Made by a program: the position numbers and the translations under genes. This document shows positions 2,928 through 31,755 of a DNA stretch of 60,497 nucleotides, piece by piece. The notes beneath the pieces were generated by a model, which saw only the letters and a program-made list of their open reading frames with translations, was not told the origin of the DNA and did no database searches. The stretch lies in contig CAMJCC010000002.1 in assembly GCA_946404035.1 (NCBI GenBank), positions 1-60,497 of the forward strand, read 5' to 3'. The DNA is from an uncultured Clostridia bacterium (GTDB taxonomy: Bacteria; Bacillota; Clostridia; Oscillospirales; CAG-272). The number at the start of each line of letters is the position of its first letter. The stretch's first letter is position 1.

Positions 2928-4760
2928 TCAGACCGAGCGCAATTCTTTCGGCAGATCGCCGTAGAGGTAGAGCGAACCGCAGATCAAGACCATCTTGCGG
3001 CGCCCTTTCGCCCGCTCGATCGCCTCGGTCAGCGTATCGCACGCCTCGCCCGCGATCCCGAGTTCCGCCGCCCGGATGGCAAGGTCCGCGGCGGGGAGGG
3101 CGCGGGGATTGTTCTGCACCGTCGTGAAGAGGAATTCGCGGCCCGGTTCGGCAAGCAGTTTGAGCGAGGGGGCGATATCCTTGTCCTTCATACAGGCGAA
3201 GACGACGGTCATCTCGCGGCGGGGAAAATAGCGGTCGAGCGAGGCGTTCAGCGCGCGGATCCCGTTGGGATTGTGTCCGCCGTCGTAGAGGATGATCGGG
3301 TCGCGGGAGAGCAGTTCCAGCCGACCCGGATGACGGGCGGCGGCGATCCCGGAGGCGACGGCGTCGGGCGCGATCCCGAGCCGGAGCGCGACCTCCGCCG
3401 CAAGGCAGGCGTTCTCGATCTGGTGGATGCCGCCGAGCGACGGGGCAAGATCCAGACCGTTATAGGTGAAACGCTCGAAGACCTCGTCAAACTCACCCGG
3501 CGCGGGCGGGTCGATGAAGACGGGGGTCACGCCGACCTCCGCCGCGCGACAGCGGATGGCGCGCTCGGCGTCGGGGGACTGCGGAGCCGAGAAGACCAGC
3601 CCCGTTTCGCACGCCGCCTTGATGATCTTGCTCTTGGTCACGGCGATCTTTTCGATCGTGTCGCCGAGGTATTCGACGTGGTCGAGGTCGATCCTGGTCA
3701 AGATCGCCGCGACGTTGCCCGGGATGACGTTGGTCGCGTCGAACTCGCCGCCAAGCCCGGTTTCGAGTACGACGTAATCGACCGCCCTCTCCGCAAAGTA
3801 GAGGAACGCGACCGCCGTCCAGATCTCGAACTGCGTCGGGGCCTCGTGAAGCGTCGCTTCGGTCTCTTTTGCCGCGGCTTCGACCCGCCCGAGCAGACGG
3901 TCGAGGTCTGCGTCCCCGATCGGTTCGCCGTTCAGGGCGATGCGCTCGTTCACCCGCACCAGATTGGGCGAAGTGTAGAGCCCGACCGAATAACCCGCTT
4001 TTTCAAGGATCGCCGCAAGGTACGCGGCGACCGATCCCTTGCCGTTGGTGCCGGCGATATGCAGGAAGCGAAGATCCTTTTCGGGGTTGCCGAGCAGGGA
4101 GAGCAGGTCGCTTTCACGCTCCAGTCCCAGCCGGGAGACCGTCTGAAAACTGTTGGCGTAGATCTTGAAATCGCCGGTCGCCGTCGGCTCGGTCGCGCGG
4201 TAGACGCCGCGCCGGTCTTTCGCCCGCTGCGAGAGGGCGCGCAGAAACGCCGGAAGCCCGTAGCGGCAGACGAGGAAGAGCGCGGCCACCCGGATCGGAT
4301 AGTTGACCAGGGCATTGATGGTCCGGGTGTAGAGCGCGGCGGCGTAGGACGGGGCGTACCCCATGATCTTGAAGACCGCCGACATCAGAAACACGTCCAC
4401 GCCCGCCCCGAGGACGAACAGGGTCAGACAGATCAGGGGGAGCGTCGGACGGCGGCGGTAGAGAAAGAGCCCGAGGACCAGCCCCGACGTCACTTTACAG
4501 GCGAGGATCAGCGGGTTCATCCCCGTCGTGACGAGCGACCCGATCAGGTCGGCGAGCCCGTAGCAGACGCCGGAATAGAGGGGACCCGCCAGTATCCCGA
4601 CCAGAGCGACCGGGAGAAACCCGAGCTCGACCCGGAACATCGTGTTCGCGGGACTGTACCCGAGAAAGCGGCAGAGCACGATGGACAGCGCCGTCATCAC
4701 GGCGGTCAGCGTGATCTTCTCGAGAGGGGAAAGACGGATCTCGGACGGTTGTTTTTGCAT
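2928..4760 (-). CDS. folC: Fusion protein: N-terminal ECF-type folate S-component (FolT-like, about 190 aa, multi-TM) plus C-terminal folylpolyglutamate synthase/dihydrofolate synthase (FolC)
   Basis: The N-terminal part carries TM helices (LTAVMTALSIVLCRF..., LGFLPVALVGILAGP...). It is followed by the Mur-ligase P-loop HIAGTNGKGS and FolC-like VLETGLGG, DHVEYLG and YDGGHNP motifs. Start at MQKQPSEI with an AGGAGG ribosome-binding site (RBS). Confidence 0.85.
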   Translation of the reverse strand: MQKQPSEIRLSPLEKITLTAVMTALSIVLCRFLGYSPANTMFRVELGFLPVALVGILAGPLYSGVCYGLADLIGSLVTTGMNPLILACKVTSGLVLGLFLYRRRPTLPLICLTLFVLGAGVDVFLMSAVFKIMGYAPSYAAALYTRTINALVNYPIRVAALFLVCRYGLPAFLRALSQRAKDRRGVYRATEPTATGDFKIYANSFQTVSRLGLERESDLLSLLGNPEKDLRFLHIAGTNGKGSVAAYLAAILEKAGYSVGLYTSPNLVRVNERIALNGEPIGDADLDRLLGRVEAAAKETEATLHEAPTQFEIWTAVAFLYFAERAVDYVVLETGLGGEFDATNVIPGNVAAILTRIDLDHVEYLGDTIEKIAVTKSKIIKAACETGLVFSAPQSPDAERAIRCRAAEVGVTPVFIDPPAPGEFDEVFERFTYNGLDLAPSLGGIHQIENACLAAEVALRLGIAPDAVASGIAAARHPGRLELLSRDPIILYDGGHNPNGIRALNASLDRYFPRREMTVVFACMKDKDIAPSLKLLAEPGREFLFTTVQNNPRALPAADLAIRAAELGIAGEACDTLTEAIERAKGRRKMVLICGSLYLYGDLPKELRSV

Positions 4761-4822
4761 AAAAAAAGTCCTCCTTCGCAAAATCATCTCGTTCTGCGCG
4801 GAGGATCATACCCGGGCGCCGA

Positions 4823-4927
4823 ACAGCGGGATGCGGGCGGTTCACTGTGACGGCGAAAACCGTTCTTCGTCCGCCCGGCAACTCCCCGTCCCGGCGGCAC
4901 TCGACACGAACCGACCTACTCTGTCTG
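4823..4927 (-). promoter_or_regulatory. THF (tetrahydrofolate, class I) riboswitch in the folT-folC leader, with an SD-sequestering helix downstream
   Basis: The minus-strand RNA reads ACAGAGUAGGUCGGUUCGUGUCGAG...GGGACG...ACGAAG...GUGAACCGCC-CGCAUCCCGCUGU. This matches the conserved AGAGUAG, UUCGCGUUAAG-like, GGGAUG-like, ACGAAG and GCAUCCGCU segments of the E. siraeum THF aptamer as I recall it. P2 shows compensatory pairing (GGUCGGUUC/GAACCGCC). Downstream, UCCUCC...GGAGGA can pair and occlude the RBS. Confidence 0.75.
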
Positions 4928-6676: not shown

Positions 6677-9083
6677 ATAGCGGTTTCAGTTTGGCGTAGG
6701 TGCCCATCAGTTTCTTTGTCGTGCCGTTGTCGAACCTGACTTCAAAGAGGACGTCGCCCCCCATCTCGCGGGAGGAGATCACGGTCCCCGCGCCGAAAAC
6801 GGCGTGGGCGACGCGGGTCCCGTCGGCGAACCGGGTCACGCCGTAACCGGCGGGACGGTCGGCGGGCTTTTGCGCCGGACGGCGGAAAGGCGAGGCGGGC
6901 GAACTGCTCCCGACGGGGGAGAGGGGAACGGGGCGGGACGCGGGGCGCGGCGAGCCGAAGCCGCCGCTTCTCTTCGAGCCGCTCTCGCGCTCGGTCAGGT
7001 CGGCGGGAATCTCGTCGGAGATGAAGCGGGACAGGCGGTTGCAGACCGTTTTGCCGTACAGCATCCGCTCGTTCGTGTGCGTGACCCAGAGCCGGTCTTT
7101 TGCCCGGGTGACGGCGACGTAGGCGAGCCGCCGCTCCTCGTTCATTTCGGAGGGGTTATAGATCGACTGCGTGCTGGGGAAGACCCCCTCTTCCGCGCCG
7201 GCGAGGAACACCTCGGGGAACTCCAGCCCTTTCGCGCTGTGGATGGTCATCAGAACGACCGCGTCGGCGTTCTCGTCGTACTTGTCGACGTCGGAGATCA
7301 GGGCGACCTCCTCGAGGAAACCGACCAGGGTCGGGGAGGCGGCGCGGCTCTCGTATTCGACGGCGGCGGATACGAACTCGTTCACGCTGTCGATCCGGGT
7401 CTTCGCGACCTCGCCCTCGGCTTCCAGCATCGCCTTGTAACCCGTGCGCTCGAATACCTCCTCGATCAAGACCGAGGGCTTCATCTCCGCGCGGCGGAGT
7501 TGGTCGATCATATCGGTGAACGCGACCAGTCGCTCGGACGCTTTGGCAAGTTCGGGATACTCGGCGCCGTGCCGCATGACCTCCATCATCGGGATCTCTT
7601 TTTCTCTTGCGATCGCGGCGATCGCCTCGACGGTCCCCGCGCCGATCTTGCGCTTCGGCTCGTTGATGACGCGGCGCAGCCGCTGATCGTCGGCGTCGGA
7701 CAATACCAGGGTCAGGTACGCTACGACGTCCCGGATCTCCTTGCGGTCGTAGAAACGCTGGGAACCGAGGACGCGGTAGGGGATGCCGCTCTTGGCGAAC
7801 CCGCTTTCGAGCGAGCGGGAGAGTTCGTTCAGCCGGTAGAGCACGGCGAAATCGCGGTAGCGGCGACCCGCCCGGACGACCTGGCGCATCACGGTGTCGG
7901 TGATGAAGCGCGCCTCGTCGTTCTGGTCGGCGCAGGCGTGGACCACGATAGGGTCGCCCTCTTTTTGGTCGCACCAGAGGACCTTCTCGTGGCGGTCGCG
8001 GTTGTGGCTGATGACGGCGTTCGCCGCCGACAGGATGGTTTTGGTACTGCGGTAGTTCTGCTCGAGCTTGACGACCTTTGCGTCGGGGTAGTTGCGGTCG
8101 AAAGAAAGGATGTTTTCGACCGTCGCGCCGCGAAAGCGGTAGATGCTCTGGTCGTCGTCGCCGACCACCATCACGTTGCGGTAGCCGCCCGAGAGCAGTT
8201 CGGTCAGACGGAATTGCGCGGGGTTGGTGTCCTGGTACTCGTCGACCGAAACGTAACGGAACTTGGTCTGATAGAAGCGGAGCGCCTCCGCGTCCTTTTC
8301 CAGCAGTTCGACGGTCTTCATGATGATGTCGTCGAAATCGAGCGCGTTGTATTCGAGCAGCGTCGCCTGGTACGCGCGATAGATCTTCGCGATATCGCGG
8401 CGCTTGGGGTCGCCCTTGGTGTCGGGGGCGTACTCTTCGGGGGGGATCAGTTTGTCCTTCGCCGCGCTGATCTCGTTGGCGACCGTCCGGACGGGCAGCG
8501 CCTTTTCGTCGACGTTCAGTTCTTTCATCACGTCGAGCAGCAGCCGGCGTTTATCGTCGGTGTCGTAGATCGAGAAGCCGGGGCGGTAGCCGACCAGCTC
8601 CCCGTAGCGGTGCAGGATGCGCACGCAGATCGAGTGGAAGGTCCCCGCCCAGATCTCCTCGGAGACGGCGGGGTCGCGCAGCGCGGCGACGAGCCGTTCC
8701 TTGATCTCGCGCGCCGCCTTGTTGGTGAACGTGATGGCGAGCATGCCCCACGGGGGACAGGGTTCGGTGATGAATTCGGGCAGGATGTCGGTCTCGATGA
8801 CCCCGCTCGGCAGAGCGAGCGCCGCCTCCATCGCCGAAACGTCCCCCTCGGTCACTCCGTCGGGGACGCGGTCGGAGAGGTAGGCGTTGCCGAACTTGAT
8901 GATGTGGGTGATGCGGTTGACGAGCACGGTGGTCTTTCCGCTGCCGGCGCCGGCAAGGACCAGGAGGGGGCCGTTGACCGTGACCACCGCCTCCCGCTGT
9001 TTATCGTTCAGTTTTTCGGAGAGCACCTTGTCGAATAAACGGCGTTTTGCCGCCAGGTACCGCCGCCCGAGTTCCGTATCCAT
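6675..9083 (-). CDS. pcrA: ATP-dependent DNA helicase PcrA (UvrD/Rep superfamily 1)
   Basis: AGAGSGKT Walker A, VDEYQDTN motif II, and VTRAKDRL near the C-terminus. 802 aa. Confidence 0.92.
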   Translation of the reverse strand: MDTELGRRYLAAKRRLFDKVLSEKLNDKQREAVVTVNGPLLVLAGAGSGKTTVLVNRITHIIKFGNAYLSDRVPDGVTEGDVSAMEAALALPSGVIETDILPEFITEPCPPWGMLAITFTNKAAREIKERLVAALRDPAVSEEIWAGTFHSICVRILHRYGELVGYRPGFSIYDTDDKRRLLLDVMKELNVDEKALPVRTVANEISAAKDKLIPPEEYAPDTKGDPKRRDIAKIYRAYQATLLEYNALDFDDIIMKTVELLEKDAEALRFYQTKFRYVSVDEYQDTNPAQFRLTELLSGGYRNVMVVGDDDQSIYRFRGATVENILSFDRNYPDAKVVKLEQNYRSTKTILSAANAVISHNRDRHEKVLWCDQKEGDPIVVHACADQNDEARFITDTVMRQVVRAGRRYRDFAVLYRLNELSRSLESGFAKSGIPYRVLGSQRFYDRKEIRDVVAYLTLVLSDADDQRLRRVINEPKRKIGAGTVEAIAAIAREKEIPMMEVMRHGAEYPELAKASERLVAFTDMIDQLRRAEMKPSVLIEEVFERTGYKAMLEAEGEVAKTRIDSVNEFVSAAVEYESRAASPTLVGFLEEVALISDVDKYDENADAVVLMTIHSAKGLEFPEVFLAGAEEGVFPSTQSIYNPSEMNEERRLAYVAVTRAKDRLWVTHTNERMLYGKTVCNRLSRFISDEIPADLTERESGSKRSGGFGSPRPASRPVPLSPVGSSSPASPFRRPAQKPADRPAGYGVTRFADGTRVAHAVFGAGTVISSREMGGDVLFEVRFDNGTTKKLMGTYAKLKPL

Positions 9084-12808: not shown

Positions 12809-12837
12809 TTGACAGATTATAAAAAAAAGGATAAAAT
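12809..12837 (+). promoter_or_regulatory. Strong sigma-A-type promoter of the giant-protein operon
   Basis: TTGACA (12809-12814), exact 17-nt spacer, TAAAAT (12832-12837), inside an AT-rich gap. Confidence 0.75.
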
Positions 12838-12889
12838 AGATTAGGAATTCGGATCGTATCCTTTTGGATACTTTCAAGACAATCTCATA

Positions 12890-12968
12890 ATATGTTAAAA
12901 GGGCAAAGCCACTGCGAAGTGGCGACGCAAAGCTAAAGGGACTCTATGAGTCAGCCAGTTGCAGCAGT
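12890..12968 (+). promoter_or_regulatory. c-di-GMP-I (GEMM) riboswitch aptamer
   Basis: AAAGGGCAAAGCCACU-GCGA-AGUGGCGACGCAAAGCUAAAGGGACUCUAUGAGUCAGCCAGUUGC. It aligns with Vc2 GGGCAAACC-AUUC-GAAA-GAGUGGGACGCAAAGCC... as I recall it. Shared elements are the GGCAAA, a P1 hairpin capped by a GNRA loop (GCGA), the invariant GACGCAAAGC junction, a second hairpin, and a CAGCCAGUUGC 3' strand. Confidence 0.75.
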
Positions 12969-12994
12969 GCAACGCGGCTGGCTTTTGTTATTTT
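12952..12994 (+). terminator. Intrinsic terminator (expression platform) overlapping the 3' strand of the aptamer
   Basis: CAGCC-AG-UUGCA-GCAG-UGCAA-CGC-GGCUG followed by GCUUUUGUUAUUUU. Its 5' arm is the same nucleotides as the aptamer's closing 3' segment. Confidence 0.7.
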
Positions 12995-13030
12995 CGGGCG
13001 CGCCGCGGCCGGACGAAAGGAGGGGAAAAG

Positions 13031-13996
13031 ATGAAAAAGATCGACAGATCGACGATGACGGTCATCCGTTTCGCGATCCCTCTTTGTCTTTCTTTTCTGA
13101 TCGTCGTCGGCGTCGTTCTGGTCGCCGTCCTGCACCCCTCGCTCGGCTGGTTCTCGGAAACCGAAAACCTGATGGTCGGGGGGATGAGCGTGGTCACCTC
13201 CACCGACGACTGCGATCTTCTGATCGAACGGGGGATCGAATACGACAGTAAAAAGGGTCCGAACCCGCCGTTGAGCAACCTCCCGCTCTATCCCGGGATC
13301 GTGGGGTTGAAGACCTTTTTCAGCGGCACCGGTTTTGACCTCGTAGCCGTTTCCACCGATACGTCGCCTAGTCTGGCGTTCGAGTTGGTGAACGAGTTGG
13401 TCCGTCCCGAGTTCGACGAGGACGTGAACGGCTCGGTCAATACCCGGTACCTGATGCCGGGCGCGTACGGAACGCTGAGCTTTTATATCCGTCCGTTCGA
13501 CGGGGTCGATCGGGTGGCGAAGACGTTTACGATCTCGCTGGCGGGGTATACCGCCATTGAGAGCGAGGGGGATTACGAGATCCAGCCCGTCACGTCCCAG
13601 AGCACGCTCGACCTGCTGAAAGGGCATATCCTCTTTTTCACCGGGCGGACGGAGGTAAACGACGCGTACCGGTACAGCGGACTGATCCGGGAGAGCTTCG
13701 TTTACGACACCGCCGAGCACGAAGTCTACGATGCGGAGAATAACCTCTACAAAGTCACCATTTATTGGGAGTGGCCCGAGACCTACCTCGACATCTCCCG
13801 CAAAACGTCAACCGAACTCGTGACCGATAAGTATCCCGTTGAGCTGACCGAGTACGTTTCCGGTAACCCCGAGTTCTTCTTCGCCATCAACCAGACGAGC
13901 GAAGAAGAGCGCGAACGCAGCGAGGGTTACGACGACGGCGACCAGAAGATCGGTAACCAGGTGCATTTCGTTTCGGTGACCGTTCAGGTAAACTGA
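13031..13996 (+). CDS. Secreted or anchored protein A (321 aa) with a TasA/camelysin-like (SipW-type) N-terminal motif; function unknown
   Basis: AGGAGGGG RBS. N-terminal TM/h-region followed by LGWFSETENLMVGGMSV (compare AYFSDKE...GTLDL of camelysin/TasA). Later LMPGAYGTLSFYIRP resembles the PGD-x...F-x-V strand of TasA-like jelly-rolls. Confidence 0.7.
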   Translation: MKKIDRSTMTVIRFAIPLCLSFLIVVGVVLVAVLHPSLGWFSETENLMVGGMSVVTSTDDCDLLIERGIEYDSKKGPNPPLSNLPLYPGIVGLKTFFSGTGFDLVAVSTDTSPSLAFELVNELVRPEFDEDVNGSVNTRYLMPGAYGTLSFYIRPFDGVDRVAKTFTISLAGYTAIESEGDYEIQPVTSQSTLDLLKGHILFFTGRTEVNDAYRYSGLIRESFVYDTAEHEVYDAENNLYKVTIYWEWPETYLDISRKTSTELVTDKYPVELTEYVSGNPEFFFAINQTSEEERERSEGYDDGDQKIGNQVHFVSVTVQVN

Positions 13997-14036
13997 CCGT
14001 CCGGGCGGACGATCGAAAAGAAAGGAGGCGAGAGCC

Positions 14037-14822
14037 GTGGAAGAAAGACCCGTGCGCGAGAACAGATCCGTTCTGCGCAAACTCGTTCCCATCGCGATCA
14101 CGATGGCGGCGCTTCTGTTGGCGCTCGCTTTGCCGGTCATGTCCTGGTTCATCACGAGTAAGAAACTGCTGGCGTACGCGCCGGTCACCTCCCCCGAGGC
14201 GCTCTATATCGGAGCGGGGCACCGGGATATCAGCAATGGTACTTTCGAGGATATCCGATACCTGTATTTCGACGGGATCAACGTCGCCGACGAATACTCC
14301 GACTACGTATTCTGCGTATACGGGACGGCGATCTCGGGTTTCTATCTGCAGCTCGGGTTCACGACCAACAACCAGTTCGTCTACGAGATCTACGTCGCGT
14401 CCGAGAGCGAGACCCCGCCGCCCGACCCGGCTACCGACTACGTGGACTACATCGTTCACGACGGTTCCAACAAGCACTACTACTACACCATCGATAACAC
14501 GGTCAACGGCGGCGATCCCATCTCCGGCACCTACCTGAACCTGGACACGACGGAGTATGCGACGAGCGGCCAGATGCTGGCAAACGAAAGCCGCGTGTCG
14601 CACGACTACGGCGAATACACCAATATCAATCGCTTCGCCAAGGCGCTCTACTGGCAGACCGACAGTGCGATCGACGGGGACACGCCGGAACTTGAGGGCG
14701 ACCAGACCTACGATTTCGTCGTCTATTTCATCCTGCGCGTCAATACGAACGGAAAGACGTCGAACGACCGCGAGACCGATATCCTCTGCATCTCGGTAAA
14801 ATCCGTCACCGTCGTCGACTGA
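14037..14822 (+). CDS. Secreted or anchored protein B (261 aa), function unknown
   Basis: GTG start 8 nt after AAAGGAGG. N-terminal TM followed by MSWFITSKKL. 40 nt downstream of gene A. Confidence 0.65.
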   Translation: MEERPVRENRSVLRKLVPIAITMAALLLALALPVMSWFITSKKLLAYAPVTSPEALYIGAGHRDISNGTFEDIRYLYFDGINVADEYSDYVFCVYGTAISGFYLQLGFTTNNQFVYEIYVASESETPPPDPATDYVDYIVHDGSNKHYYYTIDNTVNGGDPISGTYLNLDTTEYATSGQMLANESRVSHDYGEYTNINRFAKALYWQTDSAIDGDTPELEGDQTYDFVVYFILRVNTNGKTSNDRETDILCISVKSVTVVD

Positions 14823-14855
14823 CGGACGGGACCGTCATAGGAAAGGAGAGAGAGC

Positions 14856-15845
14856 ATGAAACCGAAAACAACGGTGAAAACGGAACGAACGGCGTGTCCG
14901 CAGCAAAAAGGCGACACGCGGCGTTTTGCCGTTATGCGGGTCGCGATCCTGCTCCTCATCCTTTCGCTGCTCGTCACCTCCGGGATCCTCACCTACGCCA
15001 AGTTCACGAACAGTTTGTACGCGCAGCGGACCGTCGCGGCGTACGACGCGGTGGGCGAACGTTTCTCCTCCAACTATCTGGTGGCGGGCGGCGGCGTTCG
15101 TACCGTTTCGGTCGCCTCGGCGCAAGAAACGCCGATCGCGATCGTGACCGTCTGCAACTACGAACAGGGCAAGCAGATGTATCCCAACACGCTGGATATC
15201 GATTACACGGTCACGCTGGAATTGGTCAAACTCAGCGGGGTGTCGTACGTTCCGGCGACCGCGGGTGAAGTCGGCGCCCACCAGATCACGGTCTCTCACG
15301 GCGGGCAAACCGTCTATCTGAACAGCGGAAATCTGAGCGACGACGAAACGTTTTCCGGCACGCTCTACGCCGACTACGGCGCCACGTCCGACGCCTACAC
15401 GGTGTCGTTCGAGCCGTATCAGAACCAGATCTTCCTCAGGATGACGGTGGTACCGGATGAAAATCTTGCTCTGTCGGACCTGATCGGGGTCCTGAAATCC
15501 GAGATCAAGATGGCGGGCGCGTCGAGTTCCTGGACGGGTTCGTTCCAGGACGCCACGGGGAACGCCCCCTCCTCCTACGACGGTTTCAACTACCGCGTGA
15601 ACGGGGTCGGAAGCGGGACCTTTACCCTGCGGTGGGACGCGACCAAGGTCGGGCTGAGCGATATGTCCCGTATGACCCTGCTCTCCATCCCGGGAGCAAC
15701 GGAGGACGGCAGCTCCATCACTTTCCCGGTCGACGCCGAGGACGTGAACCTGTACGACCTGCAATTCTATAAGATCAATATCACGAGCGAAACGTGGGAC
15801 GTGATGACGTCGAGCGTCGTCATCTACGAATTCGTCGCCTCCTGA
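14856..15845 (+). CDS. Secreted or anchored protein C (329 aa), function unknown
   Basis: GGAAAGGAG RBS. N-terminal TM followed by LTYAKFTNSLYA and ...ERFSSNYL. 33 nt downstream of gene B. Confidence 0.65.
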   Translation: MKPKTTVKTERTACPQQKGDTRRFAVMRVAILLLILSLLVTSGILTYAKFTNSLYAQRTVAAYDAVGERFSSNYLVAGGGVRTVSVASAQETPIAIVTVCNYEQGKQMYPNTLDIDYTVTLELVKLSGVSYVPATAGEVGAHQITVSHGGQTVYLNSGNLSDDETFSGTLYADYGATSDAYTVSFEPYQNQIFLRMTVVPDENLALSDLIGVLKSEIKMAGASSSWTGSFQDATGNAPSSYDGFNYRVNGVGSGTFTLRWDATKVGLSDMSRMTLLSIPGATEDGSSITFPVDAEDVNLYDLQFYKINITSETWDVMTSSVVIYEFVAS

Positions 15846-15870
15846 TCAGGATAATCGAGAGGGAAAAGAT

Positions 15871-18800
15871 ATGCAAACGAGAAGAGAAAAAAGGAAGATC
15901 GCGTTACGCGCCGTGCTCTGGGCATGGGGCATCGTCCTCTCATGCCTTTTCGTGTTTCTCTCTGCCCGTACCGACCGCGTCGTCGCGGCGGAGCCCGAGC
16001 CGAGCACCATCGAGATCGGTTCGGTCGAGGATTTTGCCGCGTACAGTCTGGGTTACTCGACCGATGCTTACCACCCGAAAGATACCCTGGTCATCTCGCT
16101 CCAGTCCGGTCTTGCCATTACCGACAACAACTTTATCAGTCTCGGGACCGAGAGCCGTCCCTTTGCCGGGACCCTGCAGATACCGGAGGGCGGTATCGAC
16201 ACATTCTATCTCTACGAATGTCCGCTCTTCAATTACGTGACGACCGACCTGACCATCACGGGCGGCGGAACGGTCAAGATCCAGCGTGAAGAACTGACCG
16301 AACCCATCCCCTCCGGCGTTCTGACCAGCGGCGCGCTCTTTGCAAACCACGTCGTCGCCGGAACCAACGCGGCGAACTGGTCGATCTCTTTCGAGGGCGC
16401 CACCGCGTCGTCTTTCGGGGGGCTGATCGGTTCCATCGCCGACGGCTGTGACGTGACGGTCACCTTTACGAACGCCACCAACGTCCCGGCGATCGGATCG
16501 GGGAATATCGGTCTGATCTGCGGCACGCTGGGCGACGGCGCCTCGCTTGCCGTGACGACGGCGGGCTCGGGCTCCTCCGTTTCGGTCTCGTCGACCGGGG
16601 GACACGCCGGCGGTATCGTCGGTAAGATGGGCAACGACGCGATCCTGACCCTGAACTCCGCGAACAACTCCCGCGTGACGAACGTATCGACCTCCTACGG
16701 CTCGGGTTACGCCGGCGGGATCGTCGGCTACGTTTCCGGCGTGACCACGTCGACCGGGATCAAACGCGGCGCCGGGGTCGTCGACTATACCGTTTCGGGT
16801 CAAGTGACCGGCGGCGCCGGCGCGGGCGGGCTCTTCGGCTACTACCGCTCGAACAGCGACGGCGTTTCGTTCACGCTTCAGAACACCTACAATATCGCCA
16901 GCGGGACGCGGGTCTCCTCCTCCGGGAACACCGGGGGCGTGTTCGGCTATCTGCTGAACTACGGCAACAGTTTCGCTTTCGACGGAAACGCGACGGGCAG
17001 CGAAGTGTTCACCGTTACCCTCGCCGGCGGGACCGCCCGCGGCGGCGTTGCCGGTAAGTATTCGACCGACGCGCTGTCGAACGTCCTGTCGATCACGAAC
17101 ACGAATTTCACGATCACCGCCAACGCCGGCAACACGGCGAGCCGGACCATCGGCGGTCTTGTCGGACAGGTCGCCGACGCATCCCCGTACGCGCCGGCGT
17201 ATATCAGTATCAACGGTACCAACGTCATCACGTCGGACGGCACCGGGGACGGGAACGCCCCCGGCGGCGGTCTTGTCGGCGACGCCGGTACGGGCGGCAG
17301 CTTCATCGACGTTTCGGGCAACGTGACCGTTTCGGGACGGTTCTACGCGGGCCTTGTCGCAAAACTTTCGGAGGGCGTGCTCCGCATCGCGGGCACGACC
17401 GACCTTTCGGCGTTCCGCCGGCACGGCGGCAGCGGCGACCTCACGGCGGGCACCATCGTACAGACCCGCGGCAGATCGCTCATCTACTCGCTCGGAAGCG
17501 GAGAGGGCGACGGCTGGGTACTGAAACGCAACACGTCATTCAACAATATGATCGACGACGTGAACACGTGGGGCGAGGTGCTTCGCCTCGACGGGACCAC
17601 GCTGACCGAGAGCGGACTGTTCACCGTTGATCCGTCGGCGCATACCGTCACCGTGAAGAGCGGCGTCACCGAGATCAACGACGAGGCCGGTTTTGCGAAG
17701 ACCGCCCTGAATATCCAGCTCGGAACCGCGGCGGGAAAGGGCGCGCTGCTCTTTGAGACGTCGAACCAATCCGCCACGCTCCTTGGCGCGACCCTGACGC
17801 TCGGGGCAGATATCGACCTGACGGGGACCGGACTGACCGGGATGACGCGCGACGACGGCGGAGAAGTGACCATCGCGCAGAATAAAAAAGTAATGATGCC
17901 GACCTCCGCCGCCTTTACCGGCACCTTCAACGGGAACGGTCACACCCTGACCGTCGCCACCGGAGAGGTGTGGGGGCTGACCTCCTCGGGAGCCTCGCTT
18001 CCCGCCTCCTCCACGGAGGGGATGATCCGGCGTCACCGGTTCATCGGTTTGTTTGCGAACACCGACGGGGCGACGTTCTCCAACCTGACGCTGAACGGAT
18101 ATTATCATTTCATTCTGGATATCGATCCCACCTATATCGGCGGTCTGTCCGCCTATTCGACGGGCGGTCTGGATCTGACCGGCGTGACCGTGTCCGGGCT
18201 CTCGTTTGATTATTACCTCGGCGCGAGCTATACGGCGTATATCGGCGGAGCGGTCGCCTACGCCCTCGGCGACGGTCTTGACGTTTCGGTCACGGGCGGC
18301 AGTTACCGTCCGACGATGACCGATACCTCCGCGGCCGGCAGGACGAGCGGATCCGCCGGGGACAAGATCTCCTACGTCGGCGGCGTGATCGGCTTTGTCA
18401 ACGAGGGAACGGGGCAATCGATCGAATTCGACGATACCACGATCGGGATCACCTTTACCAAGACGGTGAACACCCAACGCGAGCCGTATTTCGGCGCGGC
18501 GATCGGGGCGACCTCGAACCAGGCGTACGTCAAGGATAACCGCACGATCACCCTGACCGACGTCGACGTGATGATGAGCGCGAACGCGGCGGCGGCGGCA
18601 GGCAAGGAGTACGGCGGTATCCTCGGGACTTCGTGGCTCTCCGCCGACGTTACGATCGACGGCGTGGACGTCGTATCCGCCTCGATCACCGAGAGCAATT
18701 CCGCGGCGACCAACTTCGGCGGACTGGTCCACACGGCGACGGGGCACTGGGACGTTCAGGACCTCACCGTGACGAGCGCCAACTTCGACGTGACGGCGAC

Positions 18801-21800
18801 CGGCTCCACCTTCGGGATGATCGCGAACCGGGCATACTCGACCCTGCTCTCGAACGAAACGGCGCTTTACCTGGAACTCGACGACGCGAACTACGATATC
18901 GACGCCGTGACCTTTACCGGATCGACCGGGAACTTCTCCTCGTTCGACGAGGTCGTGGCGAACACCCGTTTCAATACCAGGGATATCGTCCGGAACGGCA
19001 ACGCGGTCGTTTCGATCAAGACGAGTGGCAACGTCGTCAACACGACCGGCAGCCAGAATACCTATCTGAACAAGACGGCGTACGGTCAATCGGCCGTCGG
19101 CGCCGCCAATCCCGACGCGCGCTATTACTACAACGTCGCGCACGCGGTCACCAATATCGGGACCGATCCCAAATACAACCTCTACGCATGGAGCGTCAAG
19201 CAGTACGCGCACTCCACGCTTTCCGCGTGGTTCGGGTCCCCGTCGTCCACCTTTGCGGGGACGATCGACCTGACCGGGATCTCCTACTATCCCGTCGACC
19301 TGTCGGCCAACGTGACCTTCTCGTCGGCAACGGTCAAACTGGATAATATCAAAATGGAAGGGTTCGTCAAAAAAGGGTATTCGGGCGACGGTTCCAGCCG
19401 CACGACGCGCTCGGCGAGCCAGCACTATCTGATGCACGCCGCGCTGTTTTTGAACGCGACCGGCGATATCACCGCGACCGGAAGCCCGGCGGGACTGAAA
19501 TTGCAGGGCAACGTGCCGAAGATCTCGAACGATATCTGCGGGTTCCTGGTCGCCGGAACGTTCGGCGGTACCGATAACCCCAGCCCGACCGTACTGGACG
19601 TGACCGACCTGGTGCTCGACGGCGTGTACGTATCGAACGGCGACAACCACTTTACCGACACGACCTACGCGCCGCTTCTGGTCAATAAAGCAAGCCGGAA
19701 CACGACGGTCACGCTGGACGGCGTGACCGCGCCGAACTACGGCTCGGATCTTGCCGCGTCCAGTCTGCTCGGCGATATGGGCAACTCGACGGCGCACGGC
19801 GTTCATCTGACGTTCACCCGCATCGTCCTCGACGGACGGAAAAGTACTTCGACCGACCTCACCGCGTCGGTCTCCCAAGCTCTGGACGACGCTTACGACA
19901 CGTCGAGGTCGATCTTCAGCCGCGCCACCCTGCTCAACAGTTTCCTGTACGCGGGCGAGAGCTCCGGTACCTACACCTTTACGATCGACGAGGACTGGGA
20001 CACTTCCACCGGCGATCCGATCCACCACGTCACCTACGGCTACGAGATCACGACCTCGCTCGAACACGCGGGCAAGCAGAACATGTACAGCGGCTCGACC
20101 ACGATCTTTACCGATCCCTCGGCCCACGACAACGACGATCCGGACAGCGTTTACGATTTCACGGCGTACTTCCAGCGCTACGTTTACGTCGCCACCAATC
20201 CGGCGGAATACAAACACGAACTGGCGGTCAACATCACCTACTCCTCGACCATTTCGGGCTTCGGCAAATACGATCAGCCGTTTCTGATCGACAGCGGCGA
20301 GAAACTGAAGATCATCGCCAAGATCATCAAGGGCGACGACGTGACGAGTTCGGTGAAGATCAATCTGCCGGGCGACCTCACGGGTTACAACTACCAGACG
20401 ACGGGATACGGGGAATACCTGTATTCTTTCAGCACGTCGACCTACACGTCCTCCGACGGCGGCGCTCCGTCGATGGTCAACGCGAACGTCCGACGGTATC
20501 TTGCCGGGGCGTACTATGCGATCACCGAAGATATCACGCTGTCCTCCGACTACGAGGCGCTCGGACAGACCACCGCCGCCAACCCCGAATACGCCTTCCA
20601 CGGCGTGATCCTCGGTTCCGGCGGCGCGATCCGGAAGATCACCAACACGTCGACCCAGCCGCTGGTCTACTCTTCGGTCGGCAGCGTGTTCAAGGACCTC
20701 GTGGTCCACGTGGCGACCGACGTCAGCGGATCGCACGAGATCCGGCTTTCTTCCGACAATACCACCTATCAGTACGCCAGCGGGCAGACCTCCTACGGCG
20801 CTCTGGTGCGGCAGGTCCTCGGCGGCGACAACGTGATCGACGACGTGAAAGTCACCTTTGACACGTCGGCCGAGACCGCCGTCACTTTCGCGTACGAGGC
20901 GAGCGGATCGAACCGCGACCGGCTGATCCCGATCGGCGGCTATATCGGCACGCTGGTCAACGGCGGCGTGATCTTCCGCAACGTGACGAGCGCATACGTC
21001 GGATTGACCGCGGCGACGACCGCAAACGTCACGGACGCCGGTTACCTCTACGTCAACCCGATCATCGGGCGCGTGCTCGCCGGCTACGCGTTCCGCGAGG
21101 CGGACGATTACGCCGTGACGTCGGCGTTCTCGAACGGGACCAAGAACTACGTTCTGTCGGATCTTGACGACGGACTTGCAAAACTTTCGATCACCAATTC
21201 GTCCAGCCAGTACACCATCACGGTGCCGAACGGGCAGGCGATGTACGTCCTCGGCGCGATCGTCAACAGCGGCGCCGCCTCGGCGAACTACAACGCGTCG
21301 ACCGAACAGGCGTACGACGGCATGGGCGACGAAGCGAACGACACGTTCTGGCAGGCGTACCGCATCTGCACCGCGACCCGCGCCGGCGCGACCTACGACT
21401 ACGTCGGAACGCTCAATCCGGCGTCCGATCCGGAGAGCGCCGCTTGCGCCGACTATACGGCGGCGGGACTTGACCGCTACGATATGAACGGCACCCACTC
21501 CGTGACCAAGAAGAGCGGCGAGACCGTCACGCTTCCGAACGGGGACCTGAAAGGGATCCCGTATATCATCCGTACCTATACCGCGAAGAACGGGAACGTT
21601 TACTACGCTCGCACTCTGACCCGCCGTACCAACAACAAGATCTCGATCACGAACAATATCGACGTCGCCGCCGGGTTCCGCGGGATCGGCAGCATCTATA
21701 CCGACGCAACGTCCTACGGGAGCGACCGGGTGCATCTCGGGATCGATACGATGTACGGCAGTACGGGAAGCACGACCATCACCCTGCACATGACGTTTAA

Positions 21801-24800
21801 CGAATACGACGCGTCGGTCACGTCCTACCGCGCCGTGAACGCCAATACGCACATTCCCTACGAGGCGGCGGTGCCCTTCGGCAGCAACGCCGGGTTCGGT
21901 CTCTTCAACCGGCTGTATCAGACAGGGTCGACCAACTATATCGAGAACTTTACCCTCTCGGGCGACTTGTATTACGGGCTGCGGGACGTGTCCGACGGCA
22001 GCGCCCTGAATTTGACGTACGACAACCTCTCGTCGACTTCGATCCTGAACGTCGGCGCGCTTGCCGGAACGGTCTACACCAACAACACGTCCTCTTTCCA
22101 GACCAGTTTGCGGGTCCGCAACGTGACGATCACGGGTCTTACGGTCACGGGACCGAAGTATGCCGGAGGGTTGGTCGGCTGCTTTGCGAACACAGTGGCA
22201 AATGCCGACGCAAAATACAAAAGCTACGTCACGAATTGCCCGGTTTCGACCACGACGATCACGGCAGGGCAGGCGGCGGGCAGTTATTTCGGCTACGCCA
22301 ACGTCGCCGGCAACCAGTCCAGCGCCAGCTCGGCGCGCCTCATCATCTCGGGCGATACGACGCTGGAGAACGGCGTGTCACGGAAGACGACGATCGCCCC
22401 GACGGCGATCACCGTCACCGGTTCCTGCCCGGCGGGAACGTGGCTGGAACGTATCAGCCCCACCGCGGGCGGCGTGATCGGCTGCGCCGACGTCGCGTTT
22501 GCTGTCAGCGGGAACTACTTCCTCGTCATTCAGCATATCAAGGTCGTCGGCGGCACCATCACCGCGGCGAGATCGAGCGTGACCGACTTTGGAACGAGAT
22601 CCAAGACGGGTCTGCCGTCCGCGGCGGGGATCATCGGTAAGATCCGTGCCGGCAGAACTTCGGTGACCGACTGCGAGGTCCTGCACGTCGACCTCAACTC
22701 CGACGTGACGGGCGGCGTGCTCGGATACGCCGTCATTCCGAAAAACTCGTCCTACGACTTCGAGCGGATCCTGATCGACGGCGACAAGGGCAACTCGACC
22801 GTCGCCGCCATGACGGCGCGGGTGCACGCGGGCGGTATCGTCGGCGAGTACTACTCCAAGAACCCCTCGAACTATACGTTCGCGGATCTTACCATCAGAA
22901 ACTACTCGTTCGTTTCCGAGTACGTCGGCGATTACGGAACGGCGGGCGGCGTCATCGGCCACACCTATATCGAGGCGAGCAACAATAAGGCGTTCCAGTT
23001 CCGCAATATCGAGGTGACCGGCTGTACGATGACGGTGGATACCACGGGCGTGAACTATACCAAGCACAAGGGCGTCGGCGGTCTTTTCGGCGCGCTCCAG
23101 GGCAACAGCAACAACGCGAAGTACACCGGGTACAACTTCCTCGTGAACAACGTCACCTTTGCGGGTTCCGGGACCGCGAACGCGGGCGCCGTCGTCGGCA
23201 ACAATATCAGCAACACGGCGAGGATCCAACTGGTCGGCGTCAGCGCGGACGTGGATCCGGGGACCAAGACGCTTACCTGGACCGAAAACAACAACAGCGG
23301 CTATTCCGCCTACGCCAACTACTCGCAGGCGACGGCCAATACGGCTTTCACCGCGCTGAGCGGCGCGGGAATGGCCGCGGTCGCCGCACCGTACGCCACG
23401 GTGAACCCCGTCTGTACGATCGGGGGACTGAAGATCGTCGGCGACGGCGTCTCGGACGAGATCGCAAACCTGCCGATCCAGTCGATCCTTGCCGGTTACG
23501 CGGCAGACAGCAAGCGGTACGCGTACGCCGCCTCCGCCTACTACACGGGCGGTTCGGGCATCACCAACTACACGGCGTTCAACAACGCGAAGTCGGGCGC
23601 GATCATCATGTTCTCCGACGAGGCGTACGGCTACGACGGCGACGACGATTTCCCCGTGATCCTGATCGAAACGACCAACGAGGACGATTCGCACAGACTG
23701 ATCAACAGTTACATCCGGCTGCTCACCAACACCACGTTCAACTTCGGGACCGACGTCGCCGGACAGTTCGAGGTCGCCATCTACAAGATGGCGTACGACG
23801 ACGAGAACGAAGTCTTCGTCCTGTCCAGCGGCGACGCGAGCTTGAAACGGACGGGCGGCAAGTTCCGGATGATCAACTCGGCGTACGACAGCGGTAAAGC
23901 GCAATGCTCGCTGATCGACGTGCGGTTCTTCGACCCGTCCGACGGGACGACGGTGGCGTACCATCTGTATATCCCGGTCTTCATCAAAAAGGTCCTGACC
24001 TTTGATTTCGACGTGGCGGCGCTGAGCGGCACCAACTACCTCGAGGGGCAGTACACCTCTCTCTTCGGTCAGCGTCTGATCGCAAACGTCGGCGCGCCGA
24101 TCACGCTCTACTTCCGCTACACCTACTCGCGGACCGCCGCCGAATGGGAATCCGCCATCAACAACGGTGAGCCGCTGCTCCGGCACTACGGCAAGAAACT
24201 GATCCTGCACAAGGCGAACAACAACGAGATCTTAAAGGATTTCGACGAGGGCAAACAGACCGAGACCATCCTGGTCCTGGTGGACAAGAACGACGGCGGA
24301 AGACCCTATTACGCCAAACTCAGCGACGCGCTCTCGGACGACGTCATCGACCTGTCGGTCTTCCAGTCGTCGATGAGGATCGACGGGAACGGGGACTACG
24401 TCTTCTCGGGCGCCTACTTCATCCCGCTCGACTTCTCGGATATGCTCTCCTATACCGCCTCGGTCGCGGTCGACGGATCGCTCGTCGCCTGCACACCCTC
24501 CGAAGCGACGGTCCGGACGTGGCAGGGCTACCGCCTTGCTACCTCCGCCGAACTGGCAAACGGCGGGATCGATAAATACGCGCTCTCGGCGTCTGTTTCC
24601 GCCGACGGGACGTACGTCCGCTGCCCCGTCGAGGGCGCACAGATCGTGATCTCGGGTTACGGCTACTGCCGTGCGACCGCCGCCCAACTGGAGGACAACG
24701 GGACCGATAAGTACGCGATCACGGCGTCGGTTTCGGGCGAGGGGACCTACGTCGCCTGCGCCGCCGGATCCGCGATGGTCCGGGTGTACGGGCAGGGTTA

Positions 24801-26390: not shown

Positions 26391-26404
26391 CCCCCGCAAA
26401 CGGC

Positions 26405-26439
26405 GGGCGCCCGGAACATTCCGGGCGCCCGTTGTTTTT
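26405..26439 (+). terminator. Intrinsic terminator of the giant-protein operon
   Basis: gggcgcccggaa/ttccgggcgccc hairpin followed by gttgttttt. Confidence 0.8.
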
Positions 26440-29793: not shown

Positions 29794-29839
29794 AATAAGG
29801 TCTGTGATTTGGAAAATCGCGGACCTTATTTCTTTTTTC
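29794..29839 (+). terminator. Weak hairpin plus T-run after the tepA-like gene
   Basis: aataaggtc ... gaccttatt (large loop) followed by tcttttttc. Confidence 0.4.
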
Positions 29840-29843
29840 GGCG

Positions 29844-29852
29844 TGCTATAAT
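29844..29852 (+). promoter_or_regulatory. Extended -10 promoter (TGcTATAAT) ahead of the phage-like block
   Basis: TGCTATAAT read directly. There is no good -35. It is followed immediately by a GTCACGC-N12-GCGTGAC inverted repeat. Confidence 0.5.
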
Positions 29853-29993
29853 AGTCACGCAACAGGTGAAAAGCGTGACGCCTGACGCATCGATCGCCGC
29901 CGCAGGACACGGCAGGTACAGACCGCTTTGGTTTCTTTTGGACCGGGTAGTCGGCGGGGCGATCCCAAAAAAGACGAGGGGAGGGGAAACGGG

Positions 29994-30368
29994 ATGACCG
30001 AGGAGCCGGGGATCGGCGCGACGTGTCCCGCCGACGCACCGGAGCGGCTGATCCGCTATTTCCGGGAGAGCGCCGCCGGGGGAGAGCTGCCCACCTTTTC
30101 GGGTGCGGCGGAGTTGCTCGGGGTCGACGTTGCGACGCTCGGGGAGTGGAAAGAAAACGATCCGGCGTTTGCCCGCGCCTACGCGGAGTGCCGCGCGGTC
30201 CTTGCCGACCATCTGCTCCGGCAGGGGCTGCAGAAACGCTACGACGCCTCGCTCGTCAAATTCCTGCTCCCCTCTTTCGGGGTGGGGACCGACGGGGACG
30301 AGGGACCCGACGAACTCTCGGTGAAGATCGAGGTCCTCGAGGGAGGGATCCCGAAAAATGCCGTCTGA
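29994..30368 (+). CDS. Putative terminase small subunit (HTH)
   Basis: Position immediately upstream of and overlapping terL. The ...FSGAAELLGVDVATLGEWKENDPAFARAY... pattern is typical of small terminases. Confidence 0.6.
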   Translation: MTEEPGIGATCPADAPERLIRYFRESAAGGELPTFSGAAELLGVDVATLGEWKENDPAFARAYAECRAVLADHLLRQGLQKRYDASLVKFLLPSFGVGTDGDEGPDELSVKIEVLEGGIPKNAV

Positions 30369-31734
30369 GGGCGTCCGTTTCAAGGTGACGCCGCGGCAGA
30401 GGGCGTTCATTGCGGCGCCCGAGCGGGAGGTCCTGTTCGGCGGGGCGGCGGGGGGAGGCAAGTCGTTCGGGCAACTGATCGACGCCTTCCTCTACGCGCT
30501 GAAATACCCGCGTTCCAAACAGCTGATCCTGCGCCGTACCTACCCCGAACTCGAAAAGTCGCTCATCCGGGTCAGCCAGGCGATCTTCCCCCGTTCGGTC
30601 TATACCTACAACGGGAGCAGCCACGTCGGGCGCTTCAAAAACGGCTCGCTGATCGACTTCGGTTATTCGGCGAGCGAGGCGGACGTCTTTCAGTACCAAT
30701 CGGCGGAATACGACGTCATCCGCTTTGACGAACTGACCCACTTTACCGAGTTCCAGTACGTCTATATGCTCTCCCGGCTCCGGGGGGTCAACGGCTACCC
30801 GAAGCAGATCAAGGCGAGCACCAATCCGGGCGGGATCGGTCACGCTTGGGTGAAGGAACGGTTCGTCGATCCCTCGCCCCCCGATACGTCCTTTATCGGC
30901 GAGGACGGGGGAAGCCGGATCTTCCTCCCCGCCAAGATCGACGACAATCCCTTTCTCACTCGGGCGGACCCCGCGTACAGGGAGCGCCTCCTCGCTCTGC
31001 CGGAGGATCAGAAACGCGCGCTCCTCTACGGGGACTGGAACCTGCTGGAGGGCAGGTTCTTCCGGGAGTTCCGCTATGATCTGCACACCGCGGATCCATT
31101 CCCGATCCCGGCGCATTGGCGGAAATACCGGACACTCGACTACGGACTTGACCGGCTCGCCTGTCTTTGGGCGGCACTCGATCCCGACGGCAACGTCTGG
31201 ATCTATCGGGAGGTCTGCCGCTCCGATCTCATCATCTCGGACGCCGCCCGCGCCATCCTCTCGGCGGAGGGAGAGGGGGAGAGGATCTACGCGACCCTCT
31301 CGCCCCCGGACCTCTTCGCCCGGAGCCAGGAGAGCGGACGCTCGCGCGCCCTGCTTTTCGCGGAGTACGGCGTGCATCTGACCAAGACCGAAAACGATCG
31401 GGAAACGGGCTGGCTCGCGGTCAAGGAACTGTTGAAAGAGGAGGGGGACCGTCCGCCCCGGCTCCGGATCTTCCGGACCTGTACCGAACTGATCCGGTGC
31501 CTTTCCATGATCGAGTGCGATCCGGCGCGACCGGGGGACGTGCGGAGCGAACCTCATCGCCTGACCCACGCCCCCGACGCGCTCCGGGGCTTCGCGATCT
31601 ATTACGCGCGCCCCGATCCGGCGGAGGAGCGCGTCCGGCAACGGCGCTGGACGCCCGATCAGTGGGAGGACTACGAAAACGCCGACCCGGCGGGGCGGGA
31701 ATACCTGCTTCGCCGGTACGGCAGACCCGAGTAA
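30358..31734 (+). CDS. Terminase large subunit
   Basis: Walker A FGGAAGGGKSF, Walker B/coupling VIRFDELTHF, and a C-terminal nuclease-like region. 458 aa. Confidence 0.88.
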   Translation: MPSEGVRFKVTPRQRAFIAAPEREVLFGGAAGGGKSFGQLIDAFLYALKYPRSKQLILRRTYPELEKSLIRVSQAIFPRSVYTYNGSSHVGRFKNGSLIDFGYSASEADVFQYQSAEYDVIRFDELTHFTEFQYVYMLSRLRGVNGYPKQIKASTNPGGIGHAWVKERFVDPSPPDTSFIGEDGGSRIFLPAKIDDNPFLTRADPAYRERLLALPEDQKRALLYGDWNLLEGRFFREFRYDLHTADPFPIPAHWRKYRTLDYGLDRLACLWAALDPDGNVWIYREVCRSDLIISDAARAILSAEGEGERIYATLSPPDLFARSQESGRSRALLFAEYGVHLTKTENDRETGWLAVKELLKEEGDRPPRLRIFRTCTELIRCLSMIECDPARPGDVRSEPHRLTHAPDALRGFAIYYARPDPAEERVRQRRWTPDQWEDYENADPAGREYLLRRYGRPE

Positions 31735-31755
31735 AAAGCAAAGGAGAATACGAAT

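Follow-up and report, generated by a model that had tools for sequence, protein, structure and literature searches.

A predicted c-di-GMP riboswitch operon of an uncultured Clostridia bacterium encodes three small proteins with TasA/SipW-style signal anatomy next to a giant secreted protein

Results

A four-gene operon behind a c-di-GMP-I riboswitch

We describe here a locus of an uncultured Clostridia bacterium (Oscillospirales, CAG-272) in which three small proteins, A, B and C, are encoded directly upstream of a giant protein, D, and downstream of a riboswitch for cyclic di-GMP (c-di-GMP). The DNA analyzed is a 60-kb stretch (60,497 nucleotides of contig CAMJCC010000002.1, assembly GCA_946404035.1; hereafter the window) of a genome with approximately 60% GC, and negative results given for the window refer to this stretch. 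An earlier interpretation of the same DNA, the sequence-only reading, had framed A, B and C as a three-gene matrix operon. The riboswitch just 5' of A and the 3,476-aa protein D were absent from it, and the locus is better described as a four-gene operon, predicted to be controlled by a c-di-GMP riboswitch, with the giant secreted protein D as its main product (Table 1). The three open reading frames themselves were found as that reading had placed them, on the plus strand and each with a good ribosome-binding site of the GGAGG type, 7-9 nt upstream. A, B and C are real genes and not chance open reading frames, because GC at third codon positions (0.78-0.82) is far above that at second positions (0.39-0.45), as is typical of coding sequence, and because they belong to families of 52, 127 and at least 155 database clusters, respectively.

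Since the three genes have their own ribosome-binding sites, the intergenic gaps are short (40 nt between A and B, 33 nt between B and C, 25 nt between C and D), promoter-like and terminator-like sites between A and D are not more frequent than expected by chance, and a terminator follows D, the predicted transcription unit is a single operon that runs from the promoter through riboswitch, A, B, C and D to this terminator. The last 600 aa of D, used as a query, recovered just two loci. Nothing conserved was found 3' of D; thus, the operon apparently has no fifth gene.

The aptamer lies 65 nt 5' of the start codon of A, on the same strand and 3' of the near-consensus promoter. In predicted folds its 3' strand, AGUCAGCCAGUUGCA, doubles as the 5' arm of the terminator hairpin, so that the ligand-bound aptamer and the terminator would exclude each other. 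This implies an ON switch, a direction of switching that we infer, in which high c-di-GMP would enable the operon. The overlap of aptamer and terminator, with differing 3' arms, is also seen in the leaders of four related loci (L004, L008, L014 and L072).

Table 1. Features of the predicted operon (positions in the window)
Feature	Position	Strand	Description
Promoter-like site, sigma-70 type	12809-12837	+	TTGACA-17-TAAAAT, 11/12 matches; in the AT-rich gap 3' of the NUDIX gene
c-di-GMP-I (GEMM-I) riboswitch aptamer	12892-12966	+	Rfam RF01051, 59.1 bits (gathering score 35), E = 4.9e-9
Expression platform	12948-12994	+	Predicted folds: intrinsic-terminator hairpin (12948-12984) and U-run UUUUGUUAUUUU
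Gene A	13031-13996	+	321 aa; putative signal peptide residues 1-39 (13031-13147), predicted cut SLG↓WF
Gene B	14037-14822	+	261 aa, GTG start; putative signal peptide residues 1-36, predicted cut VMS↓WF
Gene C	14856-15845	+	329 aa; putative signal peptide residues 1-48, predicted cut TYA↓KFTNS
Gene D	15871-26301	+	G/T/A/S-rich protein of 3,476 aa with an ordinary signal peptide for Sec (..RVVA↓AEP)
Intrinsic terminator, strong	26398-26437	+	18-bp stem, closing the operon; next gene convergent

A, B, C and D form a conserved cassette

Homologues of A, B and C come from metagenome-assembled genomes (MAGs) of Clostridia, are unnamed or annotated as hypothetical protein, and contain no Pfam domain besides one stray match in a partial sequence. 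The A-family profile matched 749 cluster representatives among 1.84 billion proteins at E <= 1e-3; a Pfam scan of 48 diverse members returned no meaningful family, and TasA, camelysin and BsaA were not among the matches. The body of A is beta-rich and carries the conserved motifs PGAYGTLTFY, GHILFF, LYWEWP and GYDDGDQ. B, a beta-sandwich, is the most conserved of the three proteins, with 20 invariant columns in 100 sequences. Its invariant polar residues include E71, R74, E246 and D248, and H62 and H141 as well as two cysteines, C93 and C251, are nearly invariant. In C, a conserved segment, AQRT..AAYD..RFSSNYL, follows the predicted cut; C is 99% identical to the NCBI protein J6X72_07080 of a 'Clostridia bacterium'. 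The sequence-only reading had seen no mutual similarity of the three proteins past their N-termini. This holds for the pairs A-B and A-C, in which only helix and motif align in hhalign (probability 79% and 58%), but not entirely for the pair B-C, which gave a weak match over 95 columns (70% probability); B and C may be remote homologues. A PADLOC scan of A, B and C gave no match, and sequence and profile searches of the PDB with all four proteins gave either nothing or chance-level matches.

A scan with the B profile, with one genome per GTDB species, gave 56 cassette loci, besides loci from metagenomes. Most carriers are rumen and gut Clostridia, among them MAGs of Christensenella, Oscillospiraceae and Ruminococcus type; Ruminococcus flavefaciens YAD2003, R. 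flavefaciens MC2020 and R. albus KH2T6 are isolates in the set, and a few carrier MAGs are labelled Acholeplasmatales or Bacilli. The order A-B-C is kept in every GTDB or metagenome locus with enough sequence, and a D homologue is found 3' of C wherever the sequence extends there. Two complete A-B-C-D cassettes (L023 and L024) lie on one 47-kb contig, JAFTCT010000063.1 of MAG RGIG3700; therefore, one genome can hold more than one giant-protein cassette.

D consists to 41% of G, T, A and S. Its GGxxG motifs are spaced by 35-44 residues, mostly 36-38, a periodicity that points to beta-helix-like coils. Three copies of a tandem repeat of about 45 aa (..DKY[AT].[ST][AV]..G.Y[VL].C..; residues 2862-2995) and a subsequent acidic E/G tract (3022-3038), together encoded at window positions 24454-24984, divide the repeat-rich body from the C-terminal region, which comprises about 440 aa and is conserved. 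Orthologues of D have ordinary Sec signal peptides, a conserved N-terminal domain and a conserved C-terminus. D and its orthologues carry neither an LPXTG motif nor a C-terminal transmembrane segment, and no sequence match was found for D in Pfam, NCBIfam or the PDB.

The N-termini of A, B and C share a signal-like junction

Each of the three proteins has a basic N-terminus and one hydrophobic segment, which is N-terminal, as described in the sequence-only reading. The post-helix strings quoted there are likewise present: HPSLGWFSETENLMVGGMSV in A (residues 35-54), LPVMSWFITSKKLL in B and GILTYAKFTNSLYA...FSSNYL in C; so is the string LMPGAYGTLSFYIRP in A (residues 141-155). We aligned the N-termini of 33 A, 90 B and 31 C sequences, anchored on the aromatic motif. 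Relative to the predicted cut (↓), position -1 is G or A in 33/33 A, A or S in 90/90 B and A or G in 31/31 C sequences, while position -3 is S, T, A or V overall and S, A or T in 33/33 A sequences. The junction has the pattern S-x-[GA]↓WF in the A family and [VTAS]-x-[AS]↓W[FLY] in 90/90 B sequences; for C, 30-31 of the 31 sequences agree with [STV]-x-A↓x[YF]T[NS]S, and proline is frequent at -4 (64/90 in B). The three families thereby display the functional signal architecture of the SipW-dependent type, with n, h and c regions, small residues at -3 and -1, and then a conserved segment that contains aromatic residues. This supports the view that the N-termini of A, B and C behave as cleavable TasA/SipW-style signals that obey the (-3,-1) rule, like TWA↓AFND of TasA.

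Mean column identity is 0.32-0.43 in the n and h regions, 0.52-0.73 in the 17-27 residues after the site and 0.58-0.66 in the folded body, so that conservation past the site equals or exceeds that of the body. The segment after the junction of B, LAAYAPISSPEALYIGAGH, is very conserved and contains proline. Structure models, which cover A and B, were obtained with AlphaFold2 (AF2) at a mean pLDDT of 86 and a pTM of 0.79 for A, and of 87 and 0.77 for B. In these models pLDDT falls below 50 at residues 35-47 of A and at residues 43-52 of B, the start of the post-junction segment, which is unstructured. The donor strands of BsaA and TasA are the residues right after the SipW cleavage site and are likewise of low confidence in monomer predictions (bioRxiv 10.1101/2024.11.04.621531; PMC9674648).

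Many loci additionally encode A-like paralogues, in which the same junction stands behind short, textbook signal peptides, for example MKKLIPA..LLVSA..GTSTYA↓WFSMN. A protein of 965 aa whose gene is oriented divergently to the cassette (L030, 4789-7686, minus strand) has a near-canonical TasA-type junction, PVTFA↓WFSDKST. A riboswitch at 8610-8698 lies on the strand of this protein, upstream of an intervening A-like open reading frame (7705-8553, minus strand).

A, B and C lack demonstrable kinship to TasA, pilins or sortase substrates

The sequence-only reading had placed A, B and C close to TasA and camelysin, a kinship for which profile, hhalign and Foldseek searches gave no support. Searches of Pfam and NCBIfam with A, B and C at E <= 10 returned no relevant match, including TIGR04088, TIGR04090, NF046066 and Peptidase_M73. 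As a control, a TasA sequence was recognized in the NCBIfam run by NF046066 with 514 bits, which validates the sequence, and by TIGR04088 with 38 bits (cut-off 19). The A-like paralogues were also negative for TIGR04088. When the profiles of A, B and C were aligned by hhalign to a single TasA sequence, the probabilities were 0.06%, 0.12% and 1.2%; in the alignment of the C family, SYA↓xYTNS stands in register with TWA↓AFNDIK of TasA. Foldseek comparison of the A and B models with 350,542 PDB chains gave nothing at E <= 0.001, in a search whose queries kept the N-terminal helix, so that a weak topological likeness could be masked. The TasA fibre (8aur_A) ranked 23rd for A (E = 0.22, TM-scores 0.19/0.24) and fell outside the top 50 for B. 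The beta-sandwich matches of A and B (PapD-like domains, EcpA, the GBS80 pilin, leukocidins, the lectin VIP36) were all non-significant and were not used. Thus, A, B and C resemble SipW substrates in their signal anatomy but are no demonstrable relatives of TasA or camelysin.

Type IV pilins or pseudopilins were rejected since A, B and C have no class III signal (G↓F/M, Glu at +5) and the conserved site follows the hydrophobic helix. Sortase-dependent pilins or adhesins were rejected as well, because neither LPxT[GASN] nor a C-terminal hydrophobic segment was found in A, B, C or D.

A different cassette behind the same leader and signal peptide

Locus L072, from a related organism, has the same flanking genes and riboswitch as the window, at about 80% nucleotide identity. 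The chromosomal site that is occupied by positions 12885-26301 in the window (9854-17898 in L072) holds a different cassette of three genes there, for proteins of 286 aa and 292 aa and a giant of 2,033 aa. Each of these proteins has an xxA↓W[FL] junction, which in the giant reads TFA↓WL. Nucleotide similarity between the window and L072 does not extend past codon 41 of gene A (..SLGWF), where it breaks off at once; the swap can be seen as a natural experiment and supports modularity. The high N-terminal identity of A to a group of 288-aa variants (P0042-P0052) was considered as a sign of a functional transmembrane helix; this was rejected, since the recombination breakpoint at codon 41 explains the identity.

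SipW-type peptidases in relatives belong to a CoCoPALM-like module

In 11 of the 56 non-redundant cassette loci a SipW-type S26 peptidase is encoded within 10 kb upstream of A. The S26 peptidases of relatives match TIGR02228 (archaeal/endoplasmic-reticulum (ER) type, with conserved Ser and His) with 71.6 and 86.6 bits at a cut-off of 51.85. Near the cassette they always stand inside one module, composed of an S26 peptidase, an McrB-like NTPase, an McrC-like protein and a second S26 peptidase. The NTPase (a GTPase, 521 aa) has membrane and coiled-coil parts, the McrC-like protein carries DUF2357 (about 950 aa), and GGDEF/EAL genes often follow the module. A narrower search with an S26 alignment gave five loci, of which four were already known, and thus tells nothing about SipW presence across genomes. 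A McrBC census devotes one paragraph to such systems under the name 'CoCoPALM' and guesses that their signal peptidases are pilus-assembly factors (PMC11090510). The module of the relatives has the same McrB-like NTPase with N-terminal transmembrane segment and coiled coil, the DUF2357 protein and genes of the signal-peptidase family; in contrast to the loci described here, that census does not contain an A-like substrate, an A-B-C-D cassette or riboswitches, and a functional link between cassette and module is suggested by gene neighbourhood. The module NTPase matches the PADLOC candidate defence family PDC-M26A.

The NTPase was found in at least 477 GTDB genomes, and across the 80 loci listed it is 54-68% identical to the query from locus L001. 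We used these best 80 loci (L074-L153), anchored on the AAA NTPase, for a census of the module. S26 is present in 79 of them, in two copies in 62, and DUF2357 in 67; a protein with an xxA↓WF signal occurs in 48 and a match to the hidden Markov model of family A in 42. This match is usually a protein of about 250 aa, encoded just upstream of the first S26 gene (an example of the module is L077, 7528-13681). At least seven cassette genomes carry the module on another contig, among them SRR10912538_bin.17, a member of the clade nearest to that of the window DNA (L096 with L009). In R. albus KH2T6 and in Tb.RUG.21 the module lies on the cassette contig past D, approximately 14 kb after the estimated end of D in the former. 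In the window itself, tblastn with the L001 module proteins found no CoCoPALM genes.

Because these gene families are tied to TIGR02228 peptidases in relatives, the genome of the window most likely encodes the 'missing' SipW at another place. By neighbourhood, the established partner of S26 is the A-like protein; we extend the link to A, B and C because of the shared junction motif and the adjacency of the genes.

Aptamers recur at cassette and module loci

We built a covariance model on three leaders and ran it over the cassette and module loci. A riboswitch lies 5' of A in 21 of the 56 cassette loci, GGDEF/EAL genes are found in 18, and one or the other in 32. The 80 CoCoPALM loci gave 36 aptamers, every one on the module strand and some in tandem. 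As aptamers recur at both kinds of loci, cassette and CoCoPALM module both seem to be part of a c-di-GMP regulon. Several loci have multiple aptamers, all on the strand of the cassette or module genes, and tandem c-di-GMP-I riboswitches were found in L039 (2563-2654 and 2689-2780) and in L074 (5410-5502 and 5521-5616).

Genomic surroundings of the operon

The operon is flanked by housekeeping genes: DUF1538, P-II, phosphoribosyltransferase and NUDIX genes upstream and GGGtGRT downstream. Further upstream, a THF riboswitch (Rfam RF01831, 75 bits; 4822-4925, minus strand) precedes a 619-aa open reading frame (2928-4787, minus strand) that is a fusion of an ECF-transporter S component and a Mur-ligase-type domain resembling folylpolyglutamate synthase. 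A prophage-like block of higher GC (0.65-0.69) starts about 3.5 kb 3' of the operon (approximately 29800-45500) and encodes a large terminase (30358-31734), a portal protein (31756-33528) and a 900-aa BspA-type leucine-rich-repeat protein (37258-39960).

Discussion

A, B and C, unrelated to each other but strictly co-inherited, are probably exported accessory or structural partners of D. We lean, with moderate confidence, towards the reading that they are subunits processed by SipW, which would join the giant putative adhesin D in an assembly or tether it, in a c-di-GMP-gated manner. Transcription would start at the promoter-like site and be gated by the riboswitch, with high c-di-GMP relieving termination, and all four proteins would be exported through Sec. 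The long signals of A, B and C would then be cut after the small -1 residue (SLG↓WF, VMS↓WF and TYA↓KF), probably by a SipW-type (archaeal/ER-type) peptidase encoded elsewhere in the genome. The new N-termini, conserved and unstructured in the monomer models, might dock into partner subunits by donor-strand-like contacts. In this way A, B and C could form a short heteromeric stalk or adaptor that holds the beta-helix-like D at the cell surface during c-di-GMP-induced sessile life and that may itself stand on a fibre of an A-like protein. SipW-dependent biofilm fibres such as those of TasA and BsaA are assembled by N-terminal donor-strand exchange (PMC9674648; bioRxiv 10.1101/2024.11.04.621531).

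Several points weigh against SipW processing and assembly with D. As the sequence-only reading had remarked, no signal peptidase gene lies nearby: an S26 peptidase of any type was found in the window neither by tblastn nor by hmmsearch --max, where all E-values were above 3. In the relatives S26 always accompanies the McrBC-like pair, so its substrate might be just the A-like protein of the module. TIGR04088, which the sequence-only reading had named as a check, did not match N-terminal fragments of the three proteins (58-75 residues) at E <= 10. Furthermore, the hydrophobic regions of the three proteins are long, about 21-29 residues, and AF2 draws continuous N-terminal helices of 29-30 residues, with that of B continuing through WF. 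Such modelled helices would fit uncleaved signal anchors equally well, and aromatic residues at the helix end are typical of membrane interfaces. Donor-strand docking of A, B and C is proposed by pure analogy, and it is composition and repeats alone that suggest an adhesin role of D.

The long hydrophobic segments and predicted helices are the starting point of an alternative in which A, B and C stay uncleaved as bitopic proteins (N-in, C-out), with membrane helices that form a platform exporting, folding or tethering D and with WF/YF as an aromatic belt at the interface. It would also suit the absence of a peptidase from the window, the lack of an anchor in D, which has neither LPXTG nor a C-terminal transmembrane segment, and the presence of the cassette in MAGs labelled Acholeplasmatales or Bacilli, where wall tethering may be impossible. 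However, invariant small residues at -1 and -3 in three unrelated families (154/154), with frequent proline at -4, are unexpected for a plain anchor. The A-like paralogues carry the same motif on textbook short, cleavable signals, the recombination breakpoint falls exactly at the site, and the families are linked to SipW-type peptidases, which together make bitopic anchors unlikely in our view, if still worth serious attention.

Two further readings appear considerably weaker to us. Should A, B and C be separate secreted or surface activities, such as lectin-like modules or maturation factors of D, neither filament nor adaptor would be needed. The many invariant polar residues of B would agree with this, and lectin jelly rolls (VIP36, TM-score 0.25) and carbohydrate-binding modules are among its weak best folds; however, every fold match is non-significant, and the common N-terminal motif of A, B and C, of the A-like paralogues and of the giant in the alternative cassette would be left unexplained, so we deem it improbable. 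Least of all do we expect A, B and C to be divergent true members of the TasA/camelysin/BsaA group that polymerize into matrix fibres independently of D. The motif does resemble TWA↓AFND, SYA↓xYTNS of C aligns in register, the bodies are beta-sandwiches, and the PG-containing strand of A recalls the LKPGD strand of TasA. Yet Pfam and NCBIfam gave no match despite the good control, hhalign stayed at or below 1.2%, PDB profile searches were empty, and the TasA fibre scored E = 0.22 and TM 0.19-0.24 for A and was absent from the top 50 for B. In addition, each of the three proteins occurs as a single copy in strict linkage with D, which suits adaptors better than a bulk matrix polymer.

The processed-subunit reading can be compared with systems of similar logic rather than of common descent. 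Like tapA-sipW-tasA of B. subtilis and sipW-bsaA-bsaB-bsaC of C. perfringens, the operon encodes several exported subunits and a larger partner (there BsaC) and no LPXTG protein. Small residues at -3 and -1 precede a conserved aromatic-containing segment that is disordered in monomer models, and in relatives the gene families are tied to archaeal/ER-type (SipW-type) peptidases. In contrast to these systems, no homology to TasA or BsaA was found at the level of sequence or fold, the peptidase gene lies outside operon and window, the partner has 3,476 aa instead of being a vWA protein of 70 kDa, a c-di-GMP riboswitch is the predicted control element, and the three small proteins are unrelated and in fixed order, not paralogues. 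Hence, of the tapA-sipW-tasA logic that the sequence-only reading had invoked, the signal anatomy and, through relatives, the SipW-type link were borne out, homology was not, and the idea of differing subunits is plausible. As mere analogies, FimF/FimG/FimH of chaperone-usher pili and the minor pilins with PilY1/PilC of type IV pili also place small subunits with a common N-terminal assembly motif beside a large adhesin, but homology, a prepilin-peptidase motif (G↓FxxxE) and an usher or chaperone are all lacking here.

Surface genes of Firmicutes under c-di-GMP riboswitches include CD2831, CD3246 and pilA1 of Clostridioides difficile and a collagen-adhesion protein of Bacillus thuringiensis behind Bc2. 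Their products are sortase-anchored LPXTG adhesins or type IV pilins. The operon shares with them a GEMM-type aptamer in the leader of a surface-protein operon, a terminator platform and attachment genes that are predicted to be up at high c-di-GMP. Unlike them, it encodes neither an LPXTG adhesin nor a type IV pilin, contains three undescribed accessory proteins, and in relatives one leader and signal peptide drives alternative cassettes. SipW-style subunits with a large partner and riboswitch-controlled adhesin operons are thus already known. The literature that we searched contains no description of the A-B-C-D cassette: neither of the proteins and their fixed architecture of A, B, C and a giant, nor of the exchange of cassettes downstream of a common leader and signal peptide, nor of the link to CoCoPALM by gene neighbourhood.

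Tentatively, and with more doubt than belief, we also consider that the A-B-C-D cassette, the A-like proteins and CoCoPALM together constitute an unrecognized Gram-positive machinery for surface filaments or adhesin display. SipW-type-processed subunits would be polymerized or extruded with the help of an NTPase from a restriction-system lineage, all under c-di-GMP riboswitches, and binding specificity would vary through the exchange of giant adhesin cassettes, with leader and signal peptide staying the same. The cassette swap seen behind a conserved riboswitch and signal peptide suggests a route to adhesin diversification.

The four proteins belong to no Pfam or NCBIfam family and have no solved relative, and yet the cassette is found in 56 species-level loci and the A family comprises 749 cluster representatives. 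Among the carriers are rumen bacteria that degrade fibre and can be cultivated (Ruminococcus albus, R. flavefaciens) and gut bacteria of the Christensenellales type, whose mode of attachment to plant particles or the host is still a question of practical weight. The locus offers a testable hypothesis, in which a c-di-GMP ON riboswitch drives a giant adhesin that is displayed by three partners with TasA-style processing signals. It also provides a candidate set of substrates for the McrBC-like CoCoPALM modules, which so far have merely been named. If the CoCoPALM NTPases do serve surface-fibre assembly, an engine of restriction systems would have been recruited for cell-surface biogenesis.

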